Assembly (NCBI GenBank): GCA_017473745.1 | Contig: JAFUJP010000094.1 | Span: 1-45,286, forward strand | DNA: 45,286 bases | From: Oscillospiraceae bacterium | GTDB taxonomy: Bacteria; Bacillota; Clostridia; Oscillospirales; Ruminococcaceae | Reading direction: 5' to 3' | In this document: piece after piece, positions 12,646-32,330 of the stretch | How positions within the stretch are numbered: the stretch's first letter is position 1 | How the letters are laid out: every line of letters starts with the position of its first letter | Position numbers and translations under genes: made by a program | Notes under the pieces: generated by a model | The model's database searches: none | What the model was told of the DNA's origin: nothing | The model's input: only the letters and a program-made list of their open reading frames with translations

Positions 12646-12755
12646 GGAATAAATAAGATTTATATATTTTAATAAGGTTTGGGAAAGGGGGAAACCTCGC
12701 AAACAATATATTTTCCACGCTTAGGCATCCAAATTTTACAAAGGAGTGAGAATTT

Positions 12756-14123: not shown

Positions 14124-14171
14124 TTTAAGAAAAAGTGCGTAAAATATATTTGACGGGAGGATATACAAATA

Positions 14172-15050: not shown

Positions 15051-15142
15051 TAAATACTTGATTTTATAATTTATTATTTGCTTGATAATTGCGTAAAATA
15101 CGCAAATTTTATCTACCTTAAATTTTAAAGGAGGTACATATC

Positions 15143-15796: not shown

Positions 15797-15866
15797 TTTA
15801 AACCTTTTGACGTTGATTTAAGATACTCATTATATCTGAAATTTGAACGACAGGAGGTGACGGATT

Positions 15867-16430: not shown

Positions 16431-16444
16431 AGGAGCAATAAGAT

Positions 16445-17887
16445 ATGTTGCAAGATAGAGATTTGCTTTCTGTGCAAGAAGCTCGCGACATGATTAAAAA
16501 AGCTCGTATAGCTTTTGAAGCCGCAAAGCTTCTTAGTCAGGAGCAGATAGACAAAATCGTTAAAGCCATGTCTGAAGCTGCCTATGCTCATAAAGAAGAA
16601 CTTGCCAAAATGGCAGTTGAAGAAACCAGCATGGGTAAATATGAAGACAAGGTTATCAAGAACACTCTTGCTTCCAAAGCAGTTTATGAAGCAATCAAAG
16701 ACATGAAAACTGTCGGTATCGTTGCTGAATATCCTGAGCAGAAGATGTTCGAAGTTGCTGTGCCCGTAGGCGTAGTATGCGGTATCGTTCCCTGCACTAA
16801 CCCTACTTCCACTGCTATCTACAAATCCATGATTTGTATGAAAGCCGCTAACCCCGTTGTATTCAGCCCCCATCCTTCCGCAAAGAATTCCATCGCAAGA
16901 ACCTGCGAAATTCTTCGCGAGGCTGCTGAAAAGGCCGGTGCACCTGCAAATATGTTCCAGTGCCTTACTACCCTCAGCATGTCCGGAACTCATGAGCTTA
17001 TGACCAACGCCGGAGTCAACATGATCCTTGCGACCGGTGGCCCCGAAATGGTTAAAGCTGCATATTCTTCCGGTGTTCCTGCTCTCGGCGTAGGCGCAGG
17101 TAACGTTCCTGCATTCATCGATCACACTGCTGATGTCAAACTTGCTGTTAAGAGAATCTTTGCTTCCAAAACTTTCGATAACGGCGTAATTTGCGCATCT
17201 GAACAGTCCATCGTTGCAGAGAACTGCATTAAAGACCAGGTTCTCGAAGCTGTTAAAGCAGAAAAAGGCTATATCCTCAACGATGAAGAATACGCAAAAC
17301 TCTGCAAGATCTTTACCAGACGTCCCGGCAGCGTTAACCCCGCTATCGTTGGCCGTCCTGCAACCAAGATCGCTGCTATGGCCGGACTTGATGTTCCTGC
17401 TGATACCAGAGTTCTTTGCTATCCTGAAAAAGGCGTCGGCGACGAATATCCTTTCTCCATCGAGAAACTTTCTCCTTGCCTTGCTCTTTATTTTGAAGAG
17501 GATTGGCAGGCTTGCTGCGAACGCTGCATCCAGCTTCTCGAGTTTATCGGTATCGGACATTCTCTTTCCATGCATACCAACGACGAGAAAGTCGTCCGCG
17601 AGTTTGCTCTTAAGAAACCCGTATCCCGTATCCTCGTTAACACTTCTGCAGCACAGGGCGGCGTAGGCGCAACCACTAACCTTATGCCCGCACTCACTCT
17701 TGGATGCGGCGCTGTTGGCGGTTCTGCAACCAGCGACAACGTTTCTCCGCTTAACCTCATCAACCTCCGCCGTGTTGCTTATGGCGTAAAAGAGGCATGG
17801 GATCTTGCAGAGGCACCCGCTGAAGAGAAAGAACTCGATGCAGATGCCATTGCAAAAATGGTTATAGCTGCATTGAAAGAGCTTTAA
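16445..17887 (+). CDS. eutE: CoA-acylating acetaldehyde dehydrogenase
   Basis: 480 aa of the ALDH superfamily, with the catalytic Cys context [14 protein letters not shown]-terminal amphipathic helix [16 protein letters not shown] follows an AEAPAEEKE linker. Confidence 0.9.
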
Positions 17888-17955
17888 TCTCTTTCTAAAC
17901 TATATTTAGGTAGAACCAGGGGATTAGCCCCAATTTTTAAGGAGGTACTATCACA

Positions 17956-18240
17956 ATGACTGATAAACAAGCACTCGGCATGATCGAAACCAGAGGACTT
18001 GTCGGCGCTATCGAAGCAGCCGATGCCATGGTTAAAGCTGCTAACGTTACCCTCATCGGTAAAGTTCACGTCGGCGGCGGACTTGTAACCGTTTTCGTTC
18101 GCGGAGACGTTGGTGCAACCAAAGCTGCAACCGATGCAGGCGCTGCTGCTGCAGACCGCGTTGGCGAGCTTAAATCTGTACATGTAATTCCGAGACCCCA
18201 CGAGGAAGTTGAATACATCCTTCCTTCTCTCGAGAAATAA
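17956..18240 (+). CDS. eutM: BMC-H hexameric shell protein (EutM/PduA type)
   Basis: 94 aa: [30 protein letters not shown]...GDVGATKAA. Confidence 0.9.
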
Positions 18241-18267
18241 TTATTCACCTTTAAGGAGGAAGACACG

Positions 18268-18549
18268 ATGGCTGAGAAATTAGCACTTGGCATGATCGAG
18301 ACCAAAGGTCTTGTTGGAGCCATTGAGGCCGCTGATGCTATGGTTAAAGCCGCAAATGTCACCCTCGTTGGCAGAGTAATCGTTGGTGGCGCCCTCGTAA
18401 CCGTGTTCGTTCGCGGTGACGTCGGCGCTACCAAAGCCGCTGTTGACGCAGGTGCAGCTGCTGCAGACCGTGTTGGCGAGCTTATCTCCACTCATGTCAT
18501 CCCGAGCACCCATGAAGAGGTCGAGTATGTCCTCCCGTCCATCGAATAA
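18268..18549 (+). CDS. eutM: BMC-H hexameric shell protein (EutM/PduA type), tandem paralogue
   Basis: 93 aa, highly similar to the preceding gene. Confidence 0.9.
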
Positions 18550-18599
18550 TTCTGAATTTTAATTTGGAATTATAAGTATTATTAGATGGGGGTGATATT

Positions 18600-19367
18600 A
18601 TGAAAGTCATTACCGAGATGGTGCTCCGCAATGAGCTGAAAGGCGAATGCCCGCCCGTATATTATGTACCGAAGGACAAACTTCTTTCTCCCGCCGCGAA
18701 GGAATATCTGAACCAGCTTAAAATCAAAGTTGAATTCGGTGATCCGCCGGCAGCTCCTGCGCCTGCAGCATCCAATAATAAAGGTTCCGCCATCAGCGAT
18801 ACTCCCGTTGGAGCAAAATACGTTGATGAACTTACCGGAGCTTTTTATGTCAAAAAGCCGGAATATATGTGCCAGCTTTTCGGTAATAGATTGGTTTATA
18901 AAAATCATCCAAGGATTGCTTTCCGCGGTAAGCTTGACAGCATGAGTTCCACTGTGGTCCAGATCCAGGCAGAAATTGCCGCGACCAGCGGCCCCCAGAA
19001 ACTTATAGATGATCTTGGTGACATCAACAAGGTGCTTAACCAGATCATGTACTGTGAAGTTATGGATGAAGAAATGGGCGTTATGAACATTCTTGGGCTT
19101 ACCCCGGAAGAACTTCGCGCTCGTTCCCACAATCCGCAGAAGTATTTTAACATTAAGCAGATGCTTCTCCCTAACTATACCATGGGAGCTGATTATACTA
19201 AACTTAATGTGCTCCGTGCGAAAGTACGTGAGCTGGAGCTTGCTGCTCTCGATTGCTTTGTTGACGGCAAAAACGTTAAACAGCCCGAGATCATCAGGAC
19301 TCTCAACCGCCTTTCCAGTGCATTCCACATCATGATGTGTATGTATCTGGCAGGTGAATATAAATAA
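18600..19367 (+). CDS. eutT: EutT-type ATP:cob(I)alamin adenosyltransferase
   Basis: The N-terminus VITEMVLRNEL...LLSPAAKEYLNQLKIKVEF resembles the EutT N-terminus as I recall it. 255 aa, in the usual Firmicutes position between eutM and pduL. Assignment is from memory only. Confidence 0.65.
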   Translation: MKVITEMVLRNELKGECPPVYYVPKDKLLSPAAKEYLNQLKIKVEFGDPPAAPAPAASNNKGSAISDTPVGAKYVDELTGAFYVKKPEYMCQLFGNRLVYKNHPRIAFRGKLDSMSSTVVQIQAEIAATSGPQKLIDDLGDINKVLNQIMYCEVMDEEMGVMNILGLTPEELRARSHNPQKYFNIKQMLLPNYTMGADYTKLNVLRAKVRELELAALDCFVDGKNVKQPEIIRTLNRLSSAFHIMMCMYLAGEYK

Positions 19368-19382
19368 TTTAGGAGGAGACTC

Positions 19383-20000
19383 ATGGCTGTAGAAAAAGTC
19401 GTTGAAGCGGTTGTTGAAGAAATCAGATCCGCAGGACTTGTTCAATTAGAGGTCTCCGCCAGACACGTGCATCTGGATAAAGAGTGCGTAGAAGTACTCT
19501 TCGGCAAGGATTATAAGCTCACTCACGTAAGAGAGCTTAGCCAGCCCGGCCAGTATCTTGAACAGGAGAGAGTTGACGTTGTAGGCCCGAAAGGCACCTT
19601 CAAAAACGTTGCAGTTCTCGGCCCGGAAAGAAAGCACGTTCAGGTTGAGGTCTCGTTCAGCGATGCTTTCGCCCTTGGAATCAATCCCCCGATCAGACAG
19701 TCGGGAGACACCAAAGGTTCCGCAAGCGTAAAGCTTGTTGGCCCCAAAGGTGAAATTACTATTGACGAAGGCGCAATTGTCGCACTTCGCCATGTTCACA
19801 TGACTCCCGAAGATGCAGAAAGACTCGGCCTTGTTGATAACCAGGTCGTTTCCGTAGAAGCTCTTACCGACAGAAGAACTATCTTCCCGGATACCGTAAT
19901 CAGAGTTTCTCCGAATTTCCGCACTCGTATGCATGTTGACGTTGACGAAGCCGGCGCCGCACATATTGCTGGTTTTGCACTTGGCAGAATTATTAAATAA
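19383..20000 (+). CDS. pduL: PduL-type phosphotransacylase with an N-terminal encapsulation-peptide-like helix
   Basis: Two PduL repeats (SARHVHL.., LRHVHMTPEDAERLGL). The N-terminus VEKVVEAVVEEIRSAGL is amphipathic. Confidence 0.9.
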   Translation: MAVEKVVEAVVEEIRSAGLVQLEVSARHVHLDKECVEVLFGKDYKLTHVRELSQPGQYLEQERVDVVGPKGTFKNVAVLGPERKHVQVEVSFSDAFALGINPPIRQSGDTKGSASVKLVGPKGEITIDEGAIVALRHVHMTPEDAERLGLVDNQVVSVEALTDRRTIFPDTVIRVSPNFRTRMHVDVDEAGAAHIAGFALGRIIK

Positions 20001-20014
20001 GGATGTATAAATAA

Positions 20015-20836
20015 ATGGTCGATCTTGAAACAATAAACGCATACATGGCTCGTGTTACCGAGACTGAAACTATCGTACACAAGCCGTGTTCGAATAAGCT
20101 TAAGGTCGGAGTTGACCTTGGTACCGCTTATATCGTAATCGTTGTTCTCGATGAGGACAACAACCCCGTTGCCTGCGAAAAGCAGTTTGCACAGGTTGTC
20201 AAGGACGGTGTTCTTGTTGATTACGGCGGCGCCTGCAGAATCCTCAGGGAACTTAAAAAGAAACTTGAGGAGCGCCTTGGTGTTGAGCTTACCGAAGCTG
20301 CCATCGCTATGCCTGCGGGAACCGAATCCAGCGCCAAGACTCATAAATACTGCGTTGAGGGCGCGGGCTTTGACGTTGTCAATGTTCTTGATGAGCCCAC
20401 CGCAGCAAACTCCATCTATGGTATCAAAGACGGTGTCGTAGTTGACATCGGCGGCGGTACCACGGGCCTTGCGATCTTCAAAGACGGCGAAGTAGTTGAA
20501 GTCGATGACGAGCCGACCGGTGGTACCCATCTTTCTCTCGTTCTTGCCGGAAGCTATGGAATTCCTTTCGAGGACGCAGAGAAGATCAAAACCGATTACA
20601 CCCGTCACAGGGAAATTCTTCCCATAGTGAAACCGGTAATCGAGAAGATGGCCACTATCGTAAAAAAATATACATCCAGATATAACATCGACACCATCTA
20701 TCTTTGCGGAGGTACTTGCTGCCTTACCGGAATGGAGAAAGTGTTTGAAGATACAGTTGGCGTAAAGACTATTAAACCCGCAGACCCGTTCCTGGTTACA
20801 CCCACCGGTATAGCCATGAACTGTCTGGTTGATTGA
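20015..20836 (+). CDS. eutJ: EutJ, DnaK/actin-fold chaperone-like protein
   Basis: VGVDLGTAYIVIVV, VVDIGGGTTGLAIF, and EPTAAN-like motifs; 273 aa. Confidence 0.85.
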   Translation: MVDLETINAYMARVTETETIVHKPCSNKLKVGVDLGTAYIVIVVLDEDNNPVACEKQFAQVVKDGVLVDYGGACRILRELKKKLEERLGVELTEAAIAMPAGTESSAKTHKYCVEGAGFDVVNVLDEPTAANSIYGIKDGVVVDIGGGTTGLAIFKDGEVVEVDDEPTGGTHLSLVLAGSYGIPFEDAEKIKTDYTRHREILPIVKPVIEKMATIVKKYTSRYNIDTIYLCGGTCCLTGMEKVFEDTVGVKTIKPADPFLVTPTGIAMNCLVD

Positions 20837-20891
20837 TCAGACGCTACCATATCTTTTCCAATGAAAAGCATTGAAAAAGAAGGTGATAATT

Positions 20892-21632
20892 ATGGATATG
20901 GATTTGTTAATTGAGCTTGCAGTCCGTGCCGTAAAAGCTTATCTTGAAAAAGAGGGCGTTGTTGCGGCGGTTGCTCCTGTGGTGGAGCCCAGAAAGGCTC
21001 TTGTTCTTACCGAAGAACATTGCGGTGAAAACTGCTCCATTGAAGCATACGGAAGTGAGCTGTGCAAAGTTGATTGTGCTCTTGCACAGAATTACGAAGT
21101 TAATGTCAATGATTACGACGTTGTCGTGGTCCGCGACATGACAAACAGCAATTTGTTCAAGATCGCCAACGGCTGCACTGACAATAAGTTCCTTGCCCTT
21201 GCGGCCGAAGCGATCCTGAAGGGTAAACGCGTGGTTATGGTCAAAGAGTGCGTTGAAATTCTCAAATATGCAGAAACCGCACCCAAAGCACTGTATAATA
21301 ACATTTATAAAAATCTCCAGATCCTTCTCGACAGCGGCGTTGAGCTCGTTGAAGAGGAAAACGTAAAATCCGCCCTTACCGAGGGTATGGATGTTCCGGC
21401 AGAAGCACCTAAAGCAGAACCTGTTAAGGTCGAAAAAGAGGAAGCTCCGGCTCCCGCTGTCAAAGCGGAAAACGAAGATTCCGTTCTTGTGCTCACTAAA
21501 CGCGTTGTAACTGAGAGAGATATTAAAGAAGCTGCTGCAAAGCACTACAAAAAGGTACAGCTTCCCGAGAAGCCTGTTATCACTTATCTCGCTAAAGACA
21601 CCGCATTTGAGCTCGGCATCGAACTTCTCTGA
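20892..21632 (+). CDS. Uncharacterised eut-operon protein (EP-like N-terminus, central domain, PEAK-rich linker, C-terminal EutT-N-like module)
   Basis: ATG at 20892 follows gaaggtga (the ORF track uses a TTG at 20871). The coding frame is long and fits between eutJ and eutN. I recognise no catalytic motif. Confidence 0.6.
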   Translation: MDMDLLIELAVRAVKAYLEKEGVVAAVAPVVEPRKALVLTEEHCGENCSIEAYGSELCKVDCALAQNYEVNVNDYDVVVVRDMTNSNLFKIANGCTDNKFLALAAEAILKGKRVVMVKECVEILKYAETAPKALYNNIYKNLQILLDSGVELVEEENVKSALTEGMDVPAEAPKAEPVKVEKEEAPAPAVKAENEDSVLVLTKRVVTERDIKEAAAKHYKKVQLPEKPVITYLAKDTAFELGIELL

Positions 21633-21654
21633 TATTTAACGGAGGTATTACCTA

Positions 21655-21942
21655 ATGAGAATTGGTGTAGTAATAGGCAGTGTTTGGGCAACCAGAAAAG
21701 AACCCAAACTCGAAGGACTCAAGCTTCTCATCGTTGCTCCCCTTGACTACAAGATGAAGGGCAACACCACCCGAGAGCCGTATATCGCCGCCGACGTTGT
21801 TGACGCAGGTATCGGCGACAGAGTTCTTATCGTTAACGGTAACCCGGCAAGATATGCCGTCGGAACCAGTGTGCCTATCGATGCCGCAATAGTTGGTGTT
21901 ATCGATGATACTGTTCTTTCCAATCTTGAAAGTTTTCAGTGA
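21655..21942 (+). CDS. eutN: BMC-P pentameric vertex protein (EutN/CcmL family)
   Basis: 95 aa: MRIGVVIGSVWATRKEPKLEGLKLLIV...DAGIGDRVLIV. Confidence 0.85.
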   Translation: MRIGVVIGSVWATRKEPKLEGLKLLIVAPLDYKMKGNTTREPYIAADVVDAGIGDRVLIVNGNPARYAVGTSVPIDAAIVGVIDDTVLSNLESFQ

Positions 21943-22175
21943 TTGAATAAGAAAAGAACCTTGAAAAATCCTGTTTTCTGTTTCAAAAACAGGTATTAAC
22001 TGTCATTAGAGGAAAGTATGCACGCGAAAATAATACATATTTGCGCACGGATAAGCGGCCTTCGTTTTATCGGAGTATCCCGCGCAAGCTTTTCGTATTT
22101 GGTCTTTCGCAGGCATACGACCCTTTTATGAATATAGTTTGAGATATAAACTAATCTTTTTAGGAGGTCAATATT

Positions 22176-23405
22176 ATGTTCGATTTCTCTGAACTTGCTG
22201 CAGCATGGAATAGTTCCCTTCCTATGTTTGGCGAATCTCTTGCTGCTTGGGTTGATGGCCTTGCAATCAACTCTGTAGTTGTTATGGTTATGATGCTCTT
22301 CATGCTCTGGGGCGCAATTGACAAAATTATGGGTAACAAATTCGGCTACGGCGAACAGTTCGAAGAAGGCCTTAACTGCATGGGCCCTCTCGCTGTTTCC
22401 ATGGCTGGTGTTGTAGCAGTTGCTCCGCTTCTTGCTCTCGTTCTTAACCCCATCGTTGGACCTATCTACAACCTTGTTGGTGCAGACGCAGCAATGTTTG
22501 CTACTACTCTTCTCGCTTGCGACATGGGTGGTTATCCTCTCGCAATGTCCATGGCTGCTAACGAAGCAATCGGTAACTACGCTGGTCTTATCCTCGGCTC
22601 CATGATGGGCCCGACCATCGTTTTCACCATTCCTGTAGCTCTTGGTATCATCGATCCTGAAGATCGTCCTTACCTCGGCGCTGGTACCCTCGTTGGTATC
22701 GTTACCATCCCCGTAGGATGCATCGCTGGTGGTTTCGTCATGAACGCTATGACTTCTTACACCCTTTCCGTTGCTGACATCCTTCTCAACATGATCCCTG
22801 TTGTTATCATCGCAGGCGCTATCGCAGCTGGCCTTTGGTTCGCTCCTTCCGCTATGATGAAAGGCTTCGATAAATTCGGCACTGGCGTTACCATTTTCAT
22901 CACTGCTGTAACTGCTATCGCTATCTTCGAATACAACACCGGTATCGTATTCCCGCTCTTCAACCTCATGATGGATGACGGCACTGGCGTTAACGGCCTC
23001 GAATCCGGTCTTCTTACCTGCGGTATCATCGCAATCGTTCTTGCTGGTGCATATCCTATGGTTAAATTCGTTACCGACAAATTCGGCGGCGCTCTTGAAA
23101 AAGTTGGTTCCGCTCTCGGTATGAACGCTGCAGGTTCTGCAGGTCTTGTTGCAACCCTTGCTAACAACATCGCAATGTTCAACATCCTCAAAGACATGAA
23201 CCCGAAAGGTAAAGTTCTCAACTGCGCATTCGCTGTTTCCGCAGCATTCGTATTTGGTGACCACCTCGGCTTCTGCGCTGGTAACAATGCTGAAATGATC
23301 GTTCCTATGATCGTTGGTAAACTTGTTGCTGGTGTTCTCGCAGTAGTTCTCGGTAACTTCATGGCTCCTGCACTTCTCGCAAAAATCCCCGGCGCTGACA
23401 AATAA
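22176..23405 (+). CDS. eutH: Ethanolamine permease EutH
   Basis: 409 aa polytopic membrane protein. The N-terminal region (FMLWGAIDKIMGNKFGYGEQFEEG) is EutH-like. Strong AGGAGG ribosome-binding site. Confidence 0.9.
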   Translation: MFDFSELAAAWNSSLPMFGESLAAWVDGLAINSVVVMVMMLFMLWGAIDKIMGNKFGYGEQFEEGLNCMGPLAVSMAGVVAVAPLLALVLNPIVGPIYNLVGADAAMFATTLLACDMGGYPLAMSMAANEAIGNYAGLILGSMMGPTIVFTIPVALGIIDPEDRPYLGAGTLVGIVTIPVGCIAGGFVMNAMTSYTLSVADILLNMIPVVIIAGAIAAGLWFAPSAMMKGFDKFGTGVTIFITAVTAIAIFEYNTGIVFPLFNLMMDDGTGVNGLESGLLTCGIIAIVLAGAYPMVKFVTDKFGGALEKVGSALGMNAAGSAGLVATLANNIAMFNILKDMNPKGKVLNCAFAVSAAFVFGDHLGFCAGNNAEMIVPMIVGKLVAGVLAVVLGNFMAPALLAKIPGADK

Positions 23406-23444
23406 TTAATTAAATAATTAGTTGTTTTTCAATGCTACCTTTTG

Positions 23445-23473
23445 GGAGCGCCTATTGCCGCGATAGGCGCTCC
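23445..23473 (+). other. Strong intercistronic hairpin between eutH and eutQ
   Basis: 11-bp GC-rich stem ggagcgcctat/ataggcgctcc with a 7-nt loop and no T-run after it. Confidence 0.5.
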
Positions 23474-23536
23474 TCTTAAAGATATTTTCAAGGCTCCTTC
23501 GAGCCCTAATTCTTATACAGAAGGAGGCGCATATCA

Positions 23537-23992
23537 ATGAATATCAGTGAAGAACTGATTAAGGAGATTGTCGCCAAAGTCTGCGCTAATATGAAAAATG
23601 AAGACTCTATGCCTTTTGAAAGAAACGTTCTTTCCAACGGCATGATGTCCATCAAAACCGAAACCGTTAAATGCGAGCCCTTCCCCTTCGATGTTGGCGA
23701 TGCAAACGGCAAAGTAGATCTCATGGATGTTGTCACCCTTGAAGAATCTCCTAACCTCGGTATTGGTGTTATGGAACTTAGAGAAGGTGCAGAGTTCCCC
23801 TGGACTCTTAACTACGATGAAGTTGAATACATCATCGATGGTACCATCGTTCTCAAATCCGATGCTGGCAATGTTACTGCAAACGCAGGCGACATGACCT
23901 TTATTCCCAAAGGCACCAGCATTCATTTCTCCACTCCGGATTTTGTTAGATTTATCTACATTTCCTTCCCTGCAGACTGGGCAAATCAGTAA
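23537..23992 (+). CDS. eutQ: EutQ cupin-fold protein (acetate kinase-like accessory protein)
   Basis: Cupin core FPWTLNYDEVEYIIDG...AGDMTFIPKGTSIHFSTP..VRFIY. N-terminal amphipathic helix EELIKEIVAKVCANM. Confidence 0.85.
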   Translation: MNISEELIKEIVAKVCANMKNEDSMPFERNVLSNGMMSIKTETVKCEPFPFDVGDANGKVDLMDVVTLEESPNLGIGVMELREGAEFPWTLNYDEVEYIIDGTIVLKSDAGNVTANAGDMTFIPKGTSIHFSTPDFVRFIYISFPADWANQ

Positions 23993-24928: not shown

Positions 24929-24972
24929 AGGGCTTTTTTGAAAATGTTTTTTTATTTTCAAAAAAGCCTTTT
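24929..24972 (+). terminator. Rho-independent terminator
   Basis: 15-bp A/T-rich stem ggcttttttgaaaat/attttcaaaaaagcc followed by a T-run. Confidence 0.65.
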
Positions 24973-25042: not shown

Positions 25043-25071
25043 TTGACAAACCTTGTAATTGGGGATATAAT
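25043..25071 (+). promoter_or_regulatory. Consensus promoter upstream of the cohesin gene cluster
   Basis: TTGACA (25043-25048), a 17-nt spacer, then TATAAT (25066-25071). Confidence 0.65.
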
Positions 25072-25110
25072 AAGATAGAATATTTATACAAATCAATTTT
25101 TAAATTTAAA

Positions 25111-25150
25111 CGGGAGCGCTCCCGTTTTCTCTGCCTTGAAAGGCAGAGAA
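25111..25150 (+). promoter_or_regulatory. Two adjacent leader hairpins between the promoter and the first cohesin gene
   Basis: cggga-gcgc-tcccg followed by TTTT, then a 10-bp stem ttctctgcct/aggcagagaa that shares part of that T-run. Confidence 0.35.
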
Positions 25151-25212
25151 AAAAGATTGTTTTTGCATAGGAACAAACAGGTTTTTAGTTTATTTTCATT
25201 TTGAGGCTTGGA

Positions 25213-26256
25213 ATGAAGAAAATTTTATCTTTTGTTTTATTCGCGGTTATTTTTGCTGCGTTCGGGGTTAGTTCCTTTGCGGCAGAAAGCGCCGAGATAT
25301 CTTTCAACACCGTCGGGCCGGATGAAAACGGAAAGGTTTTTGTTGACGTTGTTATTTCCGGAAGCAGCGAACCTTCGATGCTTCAGTTTTGCGTAGCTTA
25401 TGACAGCGAAAAGCTTGATTGTGTTTCTGTCAATGCGGGGAATGCCTTTTCCGGAAATCTTGCCCCGACCATAAACGCGGCCGAAGGCAAAATCTTTTTC
25501 GTATGGGATTCCCTTAACCCTATCAATGGGAGCGGAACGCTTTTGAGAATTGAGTTTGCTCCAAAGGCGGCGAGCCTTGAAACTTCGGTTTGGATAGACG
25601 AATCCGAGGATTTTATCGTTTCGGATGAGAGCTTTGAAAATATCGGTGTTATCGGAGCAAAAGCGGATATAAGCGTTTCTGAAAACGCAGAAGACTCATC
25701 TTCTGAAAGAAGCGAGGATACTTCGTATTCCGAAAGTTCGGAAGAAAATTCCGAAGGTTCTTCAAAATCCGAAAGTTCCGAAGATTCTGAAAATTCCGGG
25801 CAGGGTGGAGCACAAAGCTCGCCAGAGGCGGAAACCGGATACAGCAACGGTATTGAAATTGAAAAAACACAGCTTACGATAAACGTTGGCGAAGAAACTG
25901 CCATAGGTATCGGTGAAACCGATAAAAAGGTTTACTGGTACAGCAGCAACGAAAACATCGTGCGGGTCGAGGACGGGAAGATAATTGCCGTTGCACCCGG
26001 AACGGCAACCGTCACCGTTACAACCGAAGACGGGCTTGAGGAAGCGGCGTGTATCGTTCTCGTTATGGGCGAAGCGGTTTCGGATGATTCTTCCGAATCC
26101 GAAAGCGGCGTTATCGAGGTGGATTCACCCAGAAAGGAAAAGGAAGATTCCGTTCCGGTATGGGCGTGGATAGTTATTGCGGCCCTTGGGGGCGGCATCA
26201 TTTGCGTTTCTGTTATCCTTGTTAAAAAAGCAGGGGTTGCGAACAAAAAACAGTAA
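25213..26256 (+). CDS. Membrane-anchored surface protein: signal peptide, cohesin-type module, Ser/Glu-rich linker, Big_2-like Ig domain, C-terminal TM helix
   Basis: Signal peptide MKKILSFVLFAVIFAAFGVSSFA. Cohesin-like motifs SMLQFCVAYDSEKLD, GKIFFVWDS, LLRIEFAPKA. Ig-like segment VRVEDGKIIAVAPGTATVTVTTEDG. TM helix WAWIVIAALGGGIICVSVILV followed by KK. Confidence 0.75.
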   Translation: MKKILSFVLFAVIFAAFGVSSFAAESAEISFNTVGPDENGKVFVDVVISGSSEPSMLQFCVAYDSEKLDCVSVNAGNAFSGNLAPTINAAEGKIFFVWDSLNPINGSGTLLRIEFAPKAASLETSVWIDESEDFIVSDESFENIGVIGAKADISVSENAEDSSSERSEDTSYSESSEENSEGSSKSESSEDSENSGQGGAQSSPEAETGYSNGIEIEKTQLTINVGEETAIGIGETDKKVYWYSSNENIVRVEDGKIIAVAPGTATVTVTTEDGLEEAACIVLVMGEAVSDDSSESESGVIEVDSPRKEKEDSVPVWAWIVIAALGGGIICVSVILVKKAGVANKKQ

Positions 26257-26365
26257 TTCGGGGGGGAGTTTTCCCGAAAAAATGCTCCGCGGATATGCGG
26301 ATAAATAAGTCGACCGATTCCGGTGGAATATTATATACAGCAAATTTTTTTGCAGGAGGAAAGTT

Positions 26366-28126
26366 ATGAAAAAGTTTATTTCACTCATTCTTGCTGTGAT
26401 GATGGTTCTTTCATGTTCCGTCGTTTCTATGGCAGAAGAAACTGCACCCGCATTTAAGTTTGTTTCTGAACCTTTTACCGAAGAGGGACAGGAACAAACC
26501 GTTAAACTCGTTGCAGAAAATGTCGGCGGCATTACTATGCTTCAGTTCACCATCGAATATGATGCTGAAAAACTCGAGCTTGTAAGCTGCACTGCTGCTG
26601 ATTCAATCGCAGCCAACACCTTAGTGAATGCTGAAAAAGCAGGCAGAATTATCGTTGTTTATGACAGCACTGTTGCGGCTGTTATCGAAGACGCTGTTGT
26701 TACCATGGTTTTCAAAGCGGTTTCTGACGAACTTGGCGAAACTGTTATTGGATTCAACGACGAAGAAGATTTTATCGTATGTGACGATAAATTCTCTGAA
26801 ATTGTTTTCGAAGAAGAAAATAAAGCAGACCATGAAGTTGAAATCGACTACGTTCATGAACATGAATGGGGCGACTGGAAGGTAACTGCAGAGCCCGGCT
26901 GCACCACCGGCGGCCAGGAAACTCGTTACTGCATCTGCTACAACGGAACCTGCGATGAATTTGAAACCAGAGAAACTGAAGCTGCCGGCCATACTCCCGG
27001 TGAAGCAGTTGTTGAAAACGAAGTAGCACCTTCCTGCGAAACCGAAGGTTCCTATGATACCGTTGTTTACTGCGCAGTTTGCAAAGAAGAACTCAGCAGA
27101 GAGACTACCACTGTTCCTGCAACCGGCCACACTTGGGGCGACTGGGTTGTAACCAAAGAAGGTTCCTGTGAAGAATACGGTGAAGAAACCCGCACCTGCG
27201 CAATCTGCGGCGAAACCGAAACCAGAGCTACCGAACAGCTTGGTCATAAATTCGGGGAATGGGTCGTAACAAAAGAAGCAACCTGCGAAGAAGCCGGTGA
27301 AGAAACCAGCACCTGCAGCGCTTGCGGCGATGTAGTTACCAGAGAGATCCCTGCTCTTGGCCATTCCTATAACGAAGGCGTTGTAACCACCGAGCCTACC
27401 TGCGAAGGCAAAGGCGTTAAAACCTATACCTGCGCAACCTGCGGCGGAACCTATACCGAAGAAGTTCCTGCACTCGGTCATACTCCCGGCGAAGCTGTTG
27501 TTGAAAACGAAGTAGCACCTTCCTGCGAAACCGATGGTTCCTATGATACCGTTGTTTACTGCACCGTTTGCGAAGAAGAGATCAGCAGAGAAATTACCAC
27601 TGTTCCTGCACTCGGCCATTCCTATGACGAAGGCGTTGTAACCACCGAGCCTACCTGTGAAGGCAAAGGCGTTAAAACCTATACCTGCGCAACCTGCGGC
27701 GGAACCAAAACCGAAGATGTTCCCGAACTTGGTCACGATTATCAGTATGAAATCGTAAAAGAACCCGGCTGTGAAGAAGAAGGCGAAAGAAAGGTTACCT
27801 GCTCTCGCTGCGATTATGAGAAAATCGAAGCAATCGAAGCTCTCGGCCACGAATGGGGCGCATGGAAAGTCGTAAAACAGCCCAGCTACACTGAAGAAGG
27901 ACTTTCTCAGCGTGTTTGCGAAAAATGCGGCGAAATTGAAACCAAGGCTATTCCGAAACTTGTTGATAAAGATTACGTCAACCCCGGCGTAACCGTAATT
28001 ACTCCCGGCAATAAAAACGACGGCGAAGCCAACCCCAACACCGGTGCCGCTTCTGCAATCGGCGTTGCTGTTCTCGTAGCAGTTTGCGGTGCTGCAGCAG
28101 TTGTTTCCGGCAAAAAGAATAAATAA
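26366..28126 (+). CDS. Cell-wall-sorted surface protein: signal peptide, cohesin-type module, nine Cys-rich ~40-aa repeats, NPNTG sorting signal
   Basis: Signal peptide MKKFISLILAVMMVLSCSVVSMA. Cohesin motifs TMLQFTIEYDAEKLE, GRIIVVYDS. Repeats follow GH..(W/Y)..VVT.E.TCE..G..T.TC..CG...T..IPALGH. The C-terminus has NPNTG, a hydrophobic helix and KKNK. Confidence 0.8.
   Translation: MKKFISLILAVMMVLSCSVVSMAEETAPAFKFVSEPFTEEGQEQTVKLVAENVGGITMLQFTIEYDAEKLELVSCTAADSIAANTLVNAEKAGRIIVVYDSTVAAVIEDAVVTMVFKAVSDELGETVIGFNDEEDFIVCDDKFSEIVFEEENKADHEVEIDYVHEHEWGDWKVTAEPGCTTGGQETRYCICYNGTCDEFETRETEAAGHTPGEAVVENEVAPSCETEGSYDTVVYCAVCKEELSRETTTVPATGHTWGDWVVTKEGSCEEYGEETRTCAICGETETRATEQLGHKFGEWVVTKEATCEEAGEETSTCSACGDVVTREIPALGHSYNEGVVTTEPTCEGKGVKTYTCATCGGTYTEEVPALGHTPGEAVVENEVAPSCETDGSYDTVVYCTVCEEEISREITTVPALGHSYDEGVVTTEPTCEGKGVKTYTCATCGGTKTEDVPELGHDYQYEIVKEPGCEEEGERKVTCSRCDYEKIEAIEALGHEWGAWKVVKQPSYTEEGLSQRVCEKCGEIETKAIPKLVDKDYVNPGVTVITPGNKNDGEANPNTGAASAIGVAVLVAVCGAAAVVSGKKNK
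26855..27961 (+). repeat. Coding tandem array: nine copies of a Cys3-His ~36-46-aa repeat
   Basis: Repeats begin at HEWGDW, HTPGEA, HTWGDW, HKFGEW, HSYNEG, HTPGEA, HSYDEG, HDYQYE and HEWGAW. Two pairs (R2/R6 and R5/R7) are ~90% identical at the DNA level, counted by hand. Confidence 0.85.
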
Positions 28127-28150
28127 AAACTGTTTTTAACAGACCGACCA

Positions 28151-28192
28151 ATACAAACCTGCCTTTTTACCAAGGCAGGTTTGTATATTTTA
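28151..28192 (+). terminator. Rho-independent terminator
   Basis: 14-bp stem atacaaacctgcct/aggcaggtttgtat followed by attttat. Confidence 0.7.
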
Positions 28193-28221
28193 TAACCGAA
28201 AAACAGGAAAAAGGTGACACA

Positions 28222-31200
28222 ATGAAAAAGTTTTTTGCAATGCTTTTAGCGCTTTCAATGGTTTTTAATATGTCAATTTCTACCTTTGCATTGCACGAAG
28301 ACGAAACGAACATAGAAAACGTCAGCGGTATCATTGAAGATTCCGTTGTTTCTGTAAACCCTGTTTATGAAGGACTTGTCAGCGAAGAGGATTTGGTCGG
28401 CGAGGCAGAGGGAGTTTCTTCCTATGCGGCGGCGAATTATGTGGATTCGCTTGAAGAAGCAGGCGAGATTTTGCGTGAACAGCTTAAAGAACGAAAAAAT
28501 CCGGTTATTGTTTATTACATCGCCGATGAATATGATCAACAGCTTTTTACCGATTTGATTAATGCAGCATATGTCCATACCGGCGACCCGACCGAGGGTG
28601 ATTATATCAGATTTAACAATATCGGCTGGCATGGAAGCGTAAACGGTAAGAACAGCAACGGCGCTTATTACTTTACTTTCACTTATACCATGACCTATTG
28701 CGCAACGGCGGAGCAGGAAAAAGAAGTGGATAAAAAGGTGGATTCCGTTATAGCGGGCCTTAAGCTTGCGGGAAAAAACCAGTATGAAAAGGTTTGCGCA
28801 ATTTATGACTATATCTGCGAAAACGTAACCTATGACTATGAGAATCTCAACGATGATTCATATATTCTTAAATTCAGCACCTATGCGGCGCTTATAGATG
28901 AAACTGCGGTTTGCCAGGGGTATGCGACCCTTTTCTATCGCCTTGCGCTTGAAGCGGGGATAGATTCGAGGGTGATTACCGGAATCGGAAACGGCGGAAA
29001 CCACGCATGGAACGTCGTTGAGCTTTCAAAGCTTTATTATAATCTTGATTCAACCTGGGATGCCGGTTCTGAAAATTATCGTTACTTCCTCAGAAGCAAC
29101 GATAATTTCGACGACCATTACAGAGACAGTGAATATGAAACCAAGCAGTTCAACAAGAGCTACCCCATGGGTGAAACCGACTATGACCCCTCAAAGGCGG
29201 AATCTGATATTATTGATTCCGGTCATTGCGGCGGCGAAAGCGGCGGAACAAACATTATGTGGGAAATAGACAAGTACGGCGTTCTCACCTTGACGGGTGA
29301 GGGGGCAACTTCCAGTTTTGCTCCGAACGGCAACTCCCGCTGGCTCGAATATAAAGATATTATAACCGGGCTTGTTATCGGCGAGGGTATCACCCACATC
29401 GGCGATTGCGCATTTATGGGGCTCGAAAATCTTTCGGGAACAGTTGAACTTCCAAAATCGCTTGTTTCCATCGGAAACAGCGCATTCAGAGGATGCGATA
29501 AGCTCAGCGGCGGTCTTGTCATTCCGGAAAATGTTACCGAAATCGGGCATTTTGCTTTCTATGAATGCGAAAGCCTTGACGGAAAGCTTGTTCTTAACGA
29601 AGGATTAAACACCATCGGAAACTATTCTTTCAGCGGATGTACCGGATTTGAAGAGAGTCTTGACGTTCCGTCGAGCGTAACAAAAATCGGCGGCTATGCT
29701 TTTTATAACTGCAGCATAAATGAATATAATTTTGTCGGCGACGCGCCGGAGGTCGGTGCGGCATCTGGAGATATGCCTTCGTTTGATGAAGATGATACGA
29801 TACACTATCCTGCGGATAACGAAACATGGAACACCGCAGGCGGAAAATGGAACGGTTTTAACGCAAAAGGCTTCGGCGAAGTGAAAAACGCGACTCTTAC
29901 GATAGAATCAGCCGAGATTTCCGTTGGAAACAGCGAAACGGTTTCCGTAAGCATTTCCGAAGGTTCCAACGCTTCTATGATTCAGTTTGCACTGAAATAC
30001 GATTCCGATGTTCTTGAAGTCGCTGCCTGCAAGGGTGAAGGACTTTTTGAAGATGCGGCCATCAACACAAACGAGAAAGGTTTAATCATTTTTGCTTGGG
30101 ATTCCCTTGATGCGGTGGAAGAAGCGGGAAAGCTTATCAGCATCGAATTCAGGGTCAAAGACGGCGTCAAAGCAAAGGAAACGGCCATTGAAGTTGATAT
30201 GACCGAAACTTTCATTTTTGCGGATTCGGATTATAAGGATATCAACGTCGAAATAATCATCGGAAAAATAAGTATTATTGATATAATTTACGGCGATCTT
30301 AACGACGACGGAAAAATAAACGTTATTGACGCAAATATGGTGCGCCGCGCCGCCGCAAGACTTATCGAGCTTGATGAAACGCACGAAAAAGCCGCGGACG
30401 TCAGCGGTGACGGAAAAGTTAACGTCATTGATGCAAACGTGGTGCGCAGATATGCCGCCAAGCTGATAGACAGCTTCCCGGTGGGCTCGGGGCACACCCA
30501 CAGCTATTCGGAGGAAATTACGGAGAAAGAAGCTACCTGCGTTGAAGAAGGCATTGTTTCTTCCACCTGCACCGAATGCGGCGAAAAGGTCACAAAGACC
30601 ATACCGGCTCTCGGACATGATTATTCCGAAGAGGTTACGCTTAAAGCGACCTGTACCGATGGCGGAGTTATTACATATACTTGCACAAGATGTGATGACA
30701 GCTACACCGAAACGACAACCCCCACCGGACACAGCTGGAAAGAAGCGGACTGCGTTTCTCCCAGAAGTTGTGAGGAATGCGGTGAGCAGGAGGGCGAAGC
30801 CCTCGGGCATGATTACGTCGGCGGAAACTGCACTACACCCGGCGAATGCAGCAGATGCGGGGAAAAAGGAACCGAACCGGGACATAATTTTGAGGACGGT
30901 TTCTGCACCGAATGCGATGCTCTCGATCCGGATGTATGGCTCAGCGAAAGCGAGCTTTACAGCATTGCCAGCGAATTCAGCGATCTTGTTGATTATGCCA
31001 TAGCGGCAGAAGATTTTTCTTCGGAAGCAGTGGATTATTATGAAAGAGGCTATTCAAGCTCGGCGAAATCTTCGGCGGAGGATGCCCAGTATTATGGTCT
31101 TTACGTTCGGGAATACATTCTTTCGGTATATGAAATGCTCGGAGATTTTGATTGCAGCTATAATTTCGACGGAATGTGGCTTTCGCTTAAAGAATGCCTT

Positions 31201-31359
31201 GCGGAGGCATATTATTATTACGAAGATGCCATAGCGGTCGATCTCGGAACGGTTTCAAACGTATATGAAGTTGAAGAATATATTCTTTACGGAAATTCCT
31301 TCCTTGCGGGAGCACAGGAAATAATCTACTTTATGATTGAAAACGGAATATATGTTTAA
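28222..31359 (+). CDS. Secreted multidomain protein: transglutaminase-like cysteine protease core, BspA-type LRRs, cohesin-type module, dockerin, Cys-rich repeats, unknown C-terminal domain
   Basis: Signal peptide present. Cys-His-Asp triad context VCQGYATLF / NHAWNVV / LDSTWD. LRRs IGDCAF..L.G.V.LP.S..SIGN.AF..C repeated about 5 times. Cohesin motifs SMIQFALKYDSDVLE, GLIIFAWDS. Dockerin loops DLNDDGKINVID and DVSGDGKVNVID. 1045 aa. Confidence 0.8.
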   Translation: MKKFFAMLLALSMVFNMSISTFALHEDETNIENVSGIIEDSVVSVNPVYEGLVSEEDLVGEAEGVSSYAAANYVDSLEEAGEILREQLKERKNPVIVYYIADEYDQQLFTDLINAAYVHTGDPTEGDYIRFNNIGWHGSVNGKNSNGAYYFTFTYTMTYCATAEQEKEVDKKVDSVIAGLKLAGKNQYEKVCAIYDYICENVTYDYENLNDDSYILKFSTYAALIDETAVCQGYATLFYRLALEAGIDSRVITGIGNGGNHAWNVVELSKLYYNLDSTWDAGSENYRYFLRSNDNFDDHYRDSEYETKQFNKSYPMGETDYDPSKAESDIIDSGHCGGESGGTNIMWEIDKYGVLTLTGEGATSSFAPNGNSRWLEYKDIITGLVIGEGITHIGDCAFMGLENLSGTVELPKSLVSIGNSAFRGCDKLSGGLVIPENVTEIGHFAFYECESLDGKLVLNEGLNTIGNYSFSGCTGFEESLDVPSSVTKIGGYAFYNCSINEYNFVGDAPEVGAASGDMPSFDEDDTIHYPADNETWNTAGGKWNGFNAKGFGEVKNATLTIESAEISVGNSETVSVSISEGSNASMIQFALKYDSDVLEVAACKGEGLFEDAAINTNEKGLIIFAWDSLDAVEEAGKLISIEFRVKDGVKAKETAIEVDMTETFIFADSDYKDINVEIIIGKISIIDIIYGDLNDDGKINVIDANMVRRAAARLIELDETHEKAADVSGDGKVNVIDANVVRRYAAKLIDSFPVGSGHTHSYSEEITEKEATCVEEGIVSSTCTECGEKVTKTIPALGHDYSEEVTLKATCTDGGVITYTCTRCDDSYTETTTPTGHSWKEADCVSPRSCEECGEQEGEALGHDYVGGNCTTPGECSRCGEKGTEPGHNFEDGFCTECDALDPDVWLSESELYSIASEFSDLVDYAIAAEDFSSEAVDYYERGYSSSAKSSAEDAQYYGLYVREYILSVYEMLGDFDCSYNFDGMWLSLKECLAEAYYYYEDAIAVDLGTVSNVYEVEEYILYGNSFLAGAQEIIYFMIENGIYV
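30283..30477 (+). other. Dockerin module (two EF-hand-like Ca-binding repeats) inside CDS 28222..31359
   Basis: YGDLNDDGKINVIDANMVRRAAARL...AADVSGDGKVNVIDANVVRRYAAKL. Confidence 0.8.
30490..30930 (+). repeat. Coding tandem array: 4-5 copies of the same Cys-rich repeat as in the preceding gene
   Basis: GHTHSY..ATCVEEG..STCTECG..IPALGHDY..ATCTDGG..YTCTRCD..PTGHSW..C..SCEECG..ALGHDY..C..ECSRCG..PGHNF..FCTEC. Confidence 0.8.
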
Positions 31360-31371
31360 ATCATCGGGAAT

Positions 31372-31404
31372 GAGCACGGCTGAAAAAGCCGTGCTCAGTT
31401 TTTA
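31372..31404 (+). terminator. Rho-independent terminator
   Basis: Stem tgagcacggc/gccgtgctca followed by gTTTTT. Confidence 0.75.
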
Positions 31405-31460
31405 GTTTCGATAAAAATGCTTTGATTTCGTTTGTCGGAACCAAGCAGTTGAACGATAAT

Positions 31461-31516: not shown

Positions 31517-31969
31517 TCAAAAATCAAGAGAAGCAGAAATTATAAAATAAGTAATAATGGTTCCTGCGATACTGAGTATCCACCAGAGAATGGAATTTGA
31601 TACCATGTTGGAATTGAGTTGACTGGAAATTTGGGAAGCGCTGTCGACAAAAGTGTCGGTGCATTTCCACTGACCTTCAGTTTTTTCTATGTTGTAAGTG
31701 AAACTGCTTCTTATAGTCGCTCCGTAGCTGTTTTGAGAATCCACAAAACCGGAAACGCTGTAATGACCGTCACTTCCGTTGACTACCATTTCATCAAAAG
31801 AAGGGAAAACGGCACTTGCCGGCGCTTTGAGAACCTGAAGCTCGACACATTGTGCAAACAAAGCGGCCTCATCTCTTTCGGATAAAGTAATGTTTTTTTC
31901 TTGGTATTCTTCAATTTTTTTATTAAATTGAAGTTTCGCAAGCTCTGAAGTATTGGAATAATTATCCAT
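31517..31969 (-). CDS. Tail-anchored small protein of unknown function
   Basis: ATG at 31969 (MDNYSNTSEL..). 150 aa with a C-terminal hydrophobic helix ILWWILSIAGTIITYFIISA. AT-rich gene, divergent from the XRE regulator. Confidence 0.55.
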   Translation of the reverse strand: MDNYSNTSELAKLQFNKKIEEYQEKNITLSERDEAALFAQCVELQVLKAPASAVFPSFDEMVVNGSDGHYSVSGFVDSQNSYGATIRSSFTYNIEKTEGQWKCTDTFVDSASQISSQLNSNMVSNSILWWILSIAGTIITYFIISASLDF

Positions 31970-31997
31970 ATAAACACCCCACAATAAATTATTGATG

Positions 31998-32018
31998 TTG
32001 ACATTCAGTGAATGTCAA
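31998..32018. promoter_or_regulatory. Perfect 21-bp palindrome, candidate XRE operator overlapping a TTGACA box
   Basis: TTGACATTCA-G-TGAATGTCAA. Further ATGTCAA/TGACAAG half-site-like sequences lie at 32052-32072. Confidence 0.5.
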
Positions 32019-32084
32019 ATCTGATGAAATTATAGCATATAATTTCTAAAATGACAAGCACTAAATGTCAAAAAGAGGGATAAT

Positions 32085-32330
32085 ATGTTTATAAATAAAA
32101 CAGCCGAAGGATTTAATAATGTTTGCGGAAAAAATGTTGCAAAGTTTCGCAAGGATATGAAAATATCCCAAAGGGAGCTTGCAGACAGGCTTCAGCTTCA
32201 TGGGCTTGATATTGATAAAAACGCGGTTCAAAGAATTGAAGCGGGTAAACGGTTCGTTACGGATATAGAAATTATTGCACTTGCAAAGGTTTTGGGAATA
32301 AGTTTTTCCGAGATTTTGGAAGATCAATAA
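32085..32330 (+). CDS. XRE-family helix-turn-helix transcriptional regulator
   Basis: 81 aa. HTH_3-type segment ISQRELADRLQLHGLDIDKNAVQRIEAGKR. Confidence 0.85.
   Translation: MFINKTAEGFNNVCGKNVAKFRKDMKISQRELADRLQLHGLDIDKNAVQRIEAGKRFVTDIEIIALAKVLGISFSEILEDQ

Follow-up and report, generated by a model that had tools for sequence, protein, structure and literature searches.

The closest described counterparts of the locus analyzed here are cohesin-dockerin systems of ruminococci. The locus comprises three consecutive forward-strand genes, encoding proteins 1, 2 and 3, on a 45,286-nucleotide stretch from an Oscillospiraceae bacterium (contig JAFUJP010000094.1 of GenBank assembly GCA_017473745.1). 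This 45-kb stretch, referred to as the window, was the sole part of the source genome that was read. Each protein carries a signal peptide and one cohesin. Protein 1 ends in a transmembrane (TM) helix, protein 2 in a cell wall sorting signal, and protein 3 has a dockerin next to its own cohesin. In our judgment the locus is probably a single-operon, minimal version of a hypervariable surface-display island of an uncultured ruminant-gut Oscillospiraceae clade. Its modules and their order were observed; the binding between them we infer.

In Ruminococcus bromii, Amy4 (Sca1) combines a glycoside hydrolase (GH) module of family GH13 with a cohesin and a dockerin (Coh-Doc). Its dockerin binds its own cohesin, and self-association was shown experimentally (PMC4611034). 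In the same organism, the single-cohesin protein Sca2 is anchored via a sortase, and dockerins of amylases, peptidases and leucine-rich repeat (LRR) proteins bind to it (PMC4611034). Our locus resembles this system in architecture. In both Amy4 and protein 3, a functional head, a cohesin and a dockerin follow each other in one polypeptide; Sca2 and protein 2 are both single-cohesin proteins with a sortase-signal anchor; and the organisms belong to the same broad group of gut Oscillospiraceae/ruminococci. However, the head of Amy4 is a GH13 amylase, whereas that of protein 3 is transglutaminase (TGase)-like and joined to LRRs. Here, a second, TM-anchored cohesin lies alongside, all parts lie in a compact hypervariable island, and protein 3 has its Coh-Doc dyad in the interior, with repeats of three cysteines and one histidine (Cys3His repeats) and a four-helix bundle C-terminal to it.

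The second comparison is R. flavefaciens FD-1, where ORF01263-01267 form a probable operon for four proteins built of signal peptide, TGase-like domain and dockerin and one built of signal peptide, LRR and dockerin; the dockerins are symmetric and of group 4b (PMC2930009). ScaE, which is anchored by a sortase, is the partner of group 4 dockerins (PMC2930009, PMC5301203); ScaF, ScaH and ScaI are Coh-Doc adaptors, and the ScaC cohesin is type-I-like (PMC5301203). The island and FD-1 both have secreted dockerin proteins with TGase-like and LRR domains clustered head to tail, and symmetric dockerins of the class whose partner is a single cohesin anchored by a sortase. Coh-Doc adaptors that are monovalent (ScaC, ScaF, ScaH and ScaI in FD-1) and a type-I-like cohesin, as in ScaC, are also common to both. 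In FD-1, however, TGase-like and LRR domains sit on separate proteins that have no cohesin and are encoded away from the anchor, whereas here TGase-like domain, LRR, cohesin and dockerin are fused and encoded beside two anchors. FD-1 further differs in its very large cellulosome of at least 222 dockerin proteins and in the LPXTG signal of ScaE.

TM-anchored single-cohesin scaffoldins are described, in the available part of PMC13463774, for R. difficilis, Ruminococcus sp. HUN007, JE7B6 and zg921/924. The same text reports scaffoldins with LRR, Ig-like or mucin-binding domains in R. difficilis and rumen isolates, which also have dockerin-amylases. According to the available part of PMC11557425, such scaffoldins also occur in presumably non-cellulolytic "scaffoldin-containing" bacteria, for example Lachnoclostridium sp. 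MSJ-17. As far as these texts go, the common features are a signal peptide, one cohesin and a C-terminal TM helix as a non-SLH, non-sortase anchor, scaffoldins with LRR or Ig-like adhesion domains, and few or no lignocellulose-active dockerin enzymes. They differ in being genome-wide inventories, and their available parts report no conserved hypervariable island with TGase-LRR cargo. The cohesin groups defined there (4 and 7) are structure-based, and their likeness to the island cohesins is drawn from architecture.

Because these systems have been described, every element of the model put forward in a first-pass annotation of the window has a precedent. TGase-like/LRR dockerin operons, Coh-Doc adaptors and both sortase- and TM-anchored single cohesins are already known, and the novelty is lower than was implied at that stage. 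New are the TGase-LRR-Coh-Doc-(repeats)-bundle fusion, the compact grouping of the cargo gene with anchor genes of both kinds, and an island with a conserved site and hypervariable content.

Three Paralogous Cohesins and the Predicted Anchors

The five domain families named in the first-pass annotation (Cohesin, Dockerin_1, Transglut_core, LRR_5 and Big_2) all scored above their Pfam gathering cut-offs. For the cohesin model PF00963, scores of 33.7, 28.1 and 44.0 bits were obtained for proteins 1, 2 and 3 (cut-off 24.1). The three cohesins are paralogous as had been proposed, with 27-38% identity and pairwise BLASTP E values of 5e-9 to 6e-19, and the shared MLQF/MIQF..YD block occurs exactly three times in the six-frame translation of the window. 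All three N termini have a lysine-rich n-region, a hydrophobic core and an Ala-x-Ala-type cleavage site; the signal peptides were assigned by eye from the sequence, not by a predictor.

A profile built from the three cohesins matched type I cohesins in the Protein Data Bank (PDB; E~1e-5). The cohesin and dockerin of protein 3 were modeled with AlphaFold2 (AF2) at a predicted local distance difference test score (pLDDT) of 91.8, and the modeled cohesin is a nine-stranded beta-sandwich with jelly-roll fold. Foldseek aligned it to type I cohesins with TM-scores of 0.77-0.84 and root mean square deviations of 1.8-2.3 Å, compared with TM-scores of 0.5-0.6 for types II and III. The best match was C. 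acetobutylicum CohA2 (0.84, 1.8 Å). By sequence profile for all three, and by predicted fold for that of protein 3, the cohesins are type-I-like. A word-indexed search with the three-cohesin profile gave one protein and was replaced by an exhaustive search of representatives, which returned 2263 cluster representatives. Recurrent architectures among the matches were small signal peptide-cohesin-TM proteins, signal peptide-cohesin-Cys repeats-NPNTG proteins and X-Coh-Doc proteins, in addition to classical multi-cohesin scaffoldins.

Protein 1 consists of a signal peptide (residues 1-24), the cohesin (23-160), a Ser/Glu-rich linker (~150-205), a Big_2 domain (235-282; 31.2 bits, cut-off 22.8), and a 21-residue hydrophobic TM helix (~317-337) followed by a basic tail, which confirms the anchor proposed for it. 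About 40 entries with the order signal peptide, cohesin and TM helix were present among the cohesin-family sequences collected. A hidden sorting motif in front of the TM helix was considered and rejected: these ~40 TM-anchored relatives have a frequent pre-TM proline and no longer shared motif.

In protein 2 the signal peptide and cohesin (residues 23-165) are followed by nine Cys3His repeats and the NPNTG sorting signal. The protein ends in ...EANPNTGAASAIGVAVLVAVCGAAAVVSGKKNK, so that motif, hydrophobic segment and basic tail form the tripartite signal expected at the extreme C terminus, in line with the earlier assignment. Its relatives P0211 and P0292 bear the NCBI name "NPXTG-anchored protein". 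A sortase presumably couples protein 2 covalently to peptidoglycan via NPNTG.

The Cys3His repeats, which the first-pass annotation had missed, follow the pattern GH-x10-12-C-x9-10-C-x2-C with 38-46 residues per unit. In the gene for protein 2 they are visible in the DNA as a 117-nucleotide period with a 489-nucleotide higher order. No Pfam or NCBIfam model matched the repeats in a scan of proteins 1-3; they recur in 30 of 120 TGase/LRR homologs, in up to 22 copies. One histidine and three cysteines per unit suggest a zinc knuckle, and the repeats probably bind zinc. In protein 2 they most plausibly form a stalk that raises the cohesin off the wall. A 409-codon antisense open reading frame (ORF; 26621-27850, minus strand) overlies this repeat region, and a similar 690-codon antisense "gene" was seen in one related assembly (L164). 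Both are likely artefacts of repeat composition rather than genes.

The Dockerin and the Cohesin-Dockerin Dyad

The dockerin of protein 3 is of the canonical two-loop type (PF00404, 48.2 bits, cut-off 22.9) and stands next to the protein's own cohesin, as initially described. Its calcium-binding loops, DLNDDGKINVID and DVSGDGKVNVID, start at residue 692, lie 34 residues apart (30295-30330 and 30397-30432), and are the single such pair found in a six-frame motif scan of the window. Three helices are predicted for it by AF2. Since its halves are near-symmetric (16 of 24 positions identical), the dockerin is compatible with a dual-binding mode. Of 13 dockerins extracted from the islands, 12 belong to one close family that shares 43-66% identity with the protein 3 dockerin and in which the VID-AN-x-x-RR helix residues are alike in both halves.

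Only 2-3 residues separate cohesin and dockerin in protein 3. This tight dyad, likewise overlooked at first, was found in 45 proteins, with junctions of 0-7 residues and of 2-4 residues in 41 of them. In the other 44, the chain ends with the dockerin or within a few residues after it; protein 3 alone continues, for 289 residues. Because the junction is so short, binding of the cohesin in cis appears sterically implausible, which would leave it free in trans. A Pfam scan of 32 dyad proteins gave LRR_5 (15 of 32), Flg_new (5), Big_2, LRR_8, M23, TGase, and Big_3 or Fn3; no GH, carbohydrate-binding module (CBM), carbohydrate esterase or polysaccharide lyase family was found in these 32.

A dockerin-profile search for accompanying domains returned mostly fragments of <120 residues and no architectures. 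Scanning metagenomes with the profile gave matches of 32-53% identity, mostly on human-gut and other metagenome contigs. The cargo of ten dockerin-bearing metagenome ORFs ranged from GH9-CBM3 to LRR in a Pfam scan, which is uninformative for the source lineage.

The Head and C-terminal Domain of Protein 3

Protein 3 is ordered as signal peptide, TGase-like head, LRR_5 region, Coh-Doc dyad, Cys3His repeats and four-helix bundle. The Cys-His-Asp core postulated for the head was borne out by Transglut_core (PF01841, 46.2 bits, cut-off 23), and the predicted catalytic residues Cys231 (28912-28914), His261 (29002-29004) and Asp276 (29047-29049) are kept in 99-100% of 101 homologs. The head matched PDB entry 9crn (E=1.6e-8), and its N-terminal extension accompanies the core in homologs. 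A literature search gave nothing relevant on a characterized TGase-like/LRR fusion or on 9CRN, and no close relative of the head with characterized activity was found. The BspA-type LRRs were also upheld (PF13306, 87.7 bits, cut-off 27.7) and match PDB entries 4fs7 (E=6e-27) and 4gt6, with E values of 1e-25 to 1e-27.

The combination of a TGase-like and an LRR_5 domain is widespread in Oscillospiraceae and Lachnospiraceae (2340 matches, the nearest with 42-49% local identity), where the head is joined to dockerin, SLH, CW_binding_2, Fn3 or Big_2. The TGase-like/LRR_5 proteins with other attachment modules resemble protein 3 in the head (34-50% local identity, triad kept) and differ in that SLH or cell wall-binding repeats replace the dockerin and a cohesin is absent. 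The dockerin of protein 3 is thus one of several interchangeable surface-attachment modules. An intact papain-like/TGase-like triad combined with an LRR surface suggests that the head binds or processes a protein or glycoprotein; both this activity and its target are predictions from sequence. In a distant metagenome-assembled genome (MAG; L166, 7741-17777), a TGase-LRR-dockerin homolog (P0110) lies amid GH3, CBM4_9-esterase, GH5-SH3 and esterase genes, so the head family is not always apart from loci for carbohydrate-active enzymes (CAZymes).

The Tyr/Glu-rich C-terminal domain had been listed as unassigned. This still holds for its function, but no longer for its fold, which AF2 confidently predicts from the single sequence as a four-helix bundle. 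Foldseek of the model found generic helical bundles only (best E 0.014), as did a sequence search of the C-terminal 293 residues against the PDB, and no function could be assigned. The sole homolog found is the metagenomic P0016 (TGase-Doc-...-bundle; 41% identical).

A Hypervariable Island at a Conserved Site

The Ffh protein, encoded downstream of the locus, places the source as an uncultured Oscillospiraceae bacterium from the ruminant gut. It shares 94-97% identity with the Ffh of several MAGs (e.g. RGIG6405, sheep rectum), 80-82% with that of a sister group, and 65-70% with its counterparts in Ruminococcus, Ruminococcoides and Acutalibacteraceae genomes. The site between eutQ-amidohydrolase and ylxM-ffh is occupied by the same core in at least six assemblies of related uncultured Oscillospiraceae. 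The order of TM-anchored cohesin (with or without Big_2), NPNTG-anchored protein and TGase-LRR-dockerin protein is shared by L082, L081, L165, L164, L163 and L011, in all of which the NPNTG signal was found. The TGase-LRR-dockerin gene is the last before ylxM except in L082 and L001. The islands of L164, L163, L011 and L001 are partial; those of L165 and L081 have four genes, in L081 before the contig end, and that of L082 has eight. In L082, six dockerins and six cohesins were counted, with four proteins carrying both modules, one of them in the order Doc-LRR-Coh. This reversed adaptor of 529 residues, with an N-terminal dockerin, LRR_5 and a C-terminal cohesin, is encoded at 9351-10940 in L082 and at 2902-4488 in L001. 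Its cohesin was left uncalled by Pfam and was detected by the local profile (E ~1e-14). In the sister group (L003, L004) ylxM lies directly 3' of the amidohydrolase gene, and the island is therefore absent.

Relative to the window, the flanking proteins keep 81-97% identity, the island proteins only 25-50%. The island, another feature missed earlier, is thus hypervariable, with fast turnover of content between strains. Cohesin identity within classes across assemblies is 50-54% for the TM type (protein 1 and its orthologs in L082, L081, L165 and L164), 45% for the NPXTG type (protein 2 and L082_g3) and 32-40% for the Coh-Doc type. Between classes it is 16-31%, with 36% for one pair of a Coh-Doc-type and a Doc-LRR-Coh cohesin. 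Because the cohesins group by anchor type across assemblies, the three classes are old and separately maintained.

These data bear on whether the three genes are neighbors only because the site is an insertion hot spot for fast-evolving surface genes, with a dockerin that ignores the local cohesins and proteins that act independently of each other. The site is indeed hypervariable and empty in the relatives with 80-82% Ffh identity, a small unrelated insertion adjoins the island in this window only (see below), and screens in R. flavefaciens often left the dockerins of LRR proteins partnerless (PMC5301203). However, the three-part core has survived 50-75% divergence in fixed order in at least six assemblies, each of the three cohesin classes is maintained, and more dockerins go with more cohesins per island, as in L082. 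We regard the hot-spot explanation as very unlikely. The best argument for a joint role of the three genes is that their neighborhood has persisted despite deep divergence, and a functional link between the core genes is supported.

Locus Layout and Genomic Context

The coordinates of the features are given in Table 1. The consensus promoter, the short intergenic gaps (109 bp between the genes for proteins 1 and 2, 95 bp between those for proteins 2 and 3) and the terminator after protein 3 indicate, at the level of sequence signals, that the three genes form one transcription unit. The promoter-like site sits in a 296-bp gap 3' of the amidohydrolase gene, which ends with a terminator-like hairpin (24931-24968). 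The 5' leader of protein 1 (25072-25212) contains two neighboring GC-rich hairpins (~25108-25125 and ~25125-25152); an Rfam scan of the locus, these hairpins included, matched no regulatory RNA family. An identical protein 3 in unchanged gene order was found in two other independent metagenome assemblies, and an assembly artefact is therefore excluded.

Table 1. Features of the island and positions in the window
Feature	Positions	Strand	Remarks
Promoter-like site, sigma-70 type	25043-25071	+	TTGACA-17-TATAAT (12/12), upstream of protein 1
Protein 1 gene	25213-26256	+	ORF, 347 aa; membrane-anchored single-cohesin scaffoldin
Cohesin of protein 1 (TM-type class)	25279-25692	+	Pfam PF00963 E=4.8e-8; local profile envelope aa 23-160
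Protein 2 gene	26366-28126	+	ORF, 586 aa; sortase-type wall-anchored single-cohesin scaffoldin
Cohesin of protein 2 (NPXTG-type class)	26432-26860	+	Pfam PF00963 E=2.7e-6
Stalk of ~nine Cys3His repeats, protein 2	26858-27955	+	Pattern and DNA repeats; aa ~165-530, ~365 residues
Cell wall sorting signal (NPNTG motif, hydrophobic segment, KKNK tail)	28031-28123	+	NCBIfam NF033846, aa 556-585
Hairpin with weak T tail between proteins 2 and 3	28151-28186	+	Possible partial terminator or attenuator
Protein 3 gene	28222-31359	+	ORF, 1045 aa; secreted multidomain adaptor/cargo protein
TGase-like/papain-like head	28294-29211	+	Pfam Transglut_core E=6e-12; aa ~25-330
BspA-type leucine-rich repeats	29269-29763	+	Pfam LRR_5 E=7e-25; aa ~350-514
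Cohesin of protein 3 (CohDoc-type class, predicted type-I-like fold)	29884-30288	+	Pfam E=3e-11; aa 555-689
Dockerin with two Ca-binding loops, DLNDDGKINVID and DVSGDGKVNVID	30289-30492	+	Pfam Dockerin_1 E=1.3e-12
Five Cys3His repeats, two full-length and three short, protein 3	30490-30921	+	aa 757-900, ~145 residues
C-terminal four-helix bundle with beta-hairpin (predicted)	30925-31356	+	AF2 block pLDDT 89-97
Intrinsic-terminator-like hairpin (11 bp, 7 GC) and T run	31371-31407	+	3' of protein 3

Upstream, the window contains a complete operon of the ethanolamine-utilization/microcompartment type (11206-23992), which is kept in related MAGs and encodes EutA, EutB, EutC, an aldehyde dehydrogenase, a PduO-type adenosyltransferase, PduL, an EutJ-like protein, EutH and EutQ. 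The amidohydrolase gene lies between this operon and protein 1, and ylxM-ffh-rimM-trmD-uvrC follow downstream of the island. At 31517-32330, a 155-codon minus-strand ORF with a C-terminal hydrophobic helix and a gene for an 81-residue HTH_3/XRE-type regulator were found in a region of low GC content (~0.40). They are absent from all related islands and therefore represent a small strain-specific insertion between island and ylxM.

Local Absence of Carbohydrate-active Enzymes

Among the scanned ORFs of the window, none matched a glycoside hydrolase, CBM, esterase or lyase family, which agrees with the earlier statement that no GH or CBM is nearby. The related islands showed no CAZyme module either. 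The defining feature of a cellulosome or amylosome, dockerin-bearing CAZymes on cohesin scaffoldins, was thus found neither in the window nor in the related islands. The first-pass annotation had gone further and called the system self-contained and probably not amylosomal. Neither claim can be drawn from 45 kb. As to the first, the window has three cohesins and one dockerin. As to the second, R. bromii Sca2 binds amylase, peptidase and LRR dockerins alike (PMC4611034), and related ruminococci with TM-anchored cohesins have dockerin-amylases elsewhere in the genome (PMC13463774).

The island might accordingly be read as part of a larger network of the amylosome or cellulosome kind that spans the genome, in which proteins 1 and 2 would be general anchors also or mainly for CAZymes and protein 3 an accessory passenger. 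The excess of cohesins over dockerins in the window fits this explanation, as do the broad binding of Sca2, the Ffh identity of 65-70% to Ruminococcus, Ruminococcoides and Acutalibacteraceae, the type-I-like cohesins with their matches to classical scaffoldins in the profile search, and the occurrence of related dockerins on CAZymes in other organisms. R. difficilis, JE7B6 and zg921 pair TM-anchored single cohesins with dockerin-amylases and LRR/Ig-like scaffoldins (PMC13463774). Set against this are the lack of CAZymes in the scanned ORFs of the window, in the related islands and in all 32 dyad proteins scanned, and the conserved co-location of the anchors with TGase/LRR cargo, which suggests that these are the primary partners. 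We give the network explanation some weight and tend to doubt it.

Several observations weigh against the surface-display island as we propose it. With three cohesins and one dockerin, the locus alone cannot fill its own sockets, and some of its cohesins need partners encoded elsewhere or self-association; CAZyme-dockerins may lie elsewhere in the genome. Dockerins 35-53% identical to the island family sit on GH9, GH18, GH53 and pectate lyase proteins of other organisms, so the dockerin family as such is not confined to non-CAZyme cargo. Most LRR-protein dockerins of R. flavefaciens bound none of the cohesins tested (PMC5301203). As to the wall anchor, protein 2 scores 22.7 bits on NCBIfam NF033846 (Rumino_NPXTG), 0.8 below the cut-off of 23.5, and no sortase gene was found among the window ORFs scanned. 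Finally, the hairpin between the genes for proteins 2 and 3 could uncouple their expression.

Proposed Function

The surface-display reading rests on the modules, their order and paralogy, the anchoring signals, the synteny, the hypervariability, and the absence of CAZymes locally and in the dyad family. Proteins 1 and 2 would serve as anchoring scaffoldins with one type-I-like cohesin each. Protein 1 would be held in the membrane by its C-terminal TM helix, behind the Big_2 domain and the acidic linker, and protein 2 would be attached to peptidoglycan, presumably by a sortase via NPNTG, and raised on its probably zinc-binding Cys3His stalk. Protein 3 would be secreted and carry the TGase-like/papain-like Cys-His-Asp head together with the BspA-type LRRs as a binding surface. 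Its near-symmetric dockerin would plug, in a Ca-dependent manner, into the cohesin of protein 1, of protein 2 or of both and attach protein 3 non-covalently to the cell; these partners are suggested by synteny and by precedent (PMC4611034, PMC5301203). The cohesin of protein 3 would remain free for a further dockerin, either of another copy of protein 3 or of dockerin proteins encoded elsewhere. The adaptor logic of the first-pass annotation is retained here, in that protein 3 carries both a dockerin and a free cohesin. The output would be the display of an adhesin- or protease-like activity, that is, binding or processing of proteins or glycoproteins, and not polysaccharide breakdown.

A variant of this reading treats the island as a self-sufficient, "Lego"-like system, a non-enzymatic scaffold that builds variable adhesin arrays. 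The dyad, present in at least 45 proteins that are mostly of the LRR kind, would then act as a conserved supermodule whose dockerin binds cohesins of its own family in trans. Proteins like protein 3 would daisy-chain into non-covalent fibers or brushes that have the TM- and sortase-anchored cohesins as their base, and the fast replacement of island content would diversify the LRR/TGase-like heads under pressure from host immunity, phages or ligands. We consider this variant unlikely.

Significance

Dockerin proteins with LRR or transglutaminase-like domains abound in ruminococcal genomes; R. flavefaciens FD-1 has 28 and 10 of them, respectively, all of unexplained function, and most of its LRR dockerins stayed partnerless in systematic screens. 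The island places an adhesin-like LRR/TGase dockerin protein directly beside two anchored cohesins, which are its likely sockets. As a three-protein system it is small enough to be expressed, and both the cohesin choice of such dockerins and the target of the head become addressable. With its Cys3His repeat stalk and C-terminal four-helix bundle, the island also draws attention to two modules that had not been described. If the "Lego"-like variant were true, the long-missing cognate cohesins of LRR dockerins would be identified, and a cohesin-dockerin system would be at hand that serves primarily adhesion or protein processing rather than carbohydrate degradation. For the organisms themselves, the island is an example of a rapidly evolving surface locus in a seemingly common, uncultured lineage of the ruminant hindgut.

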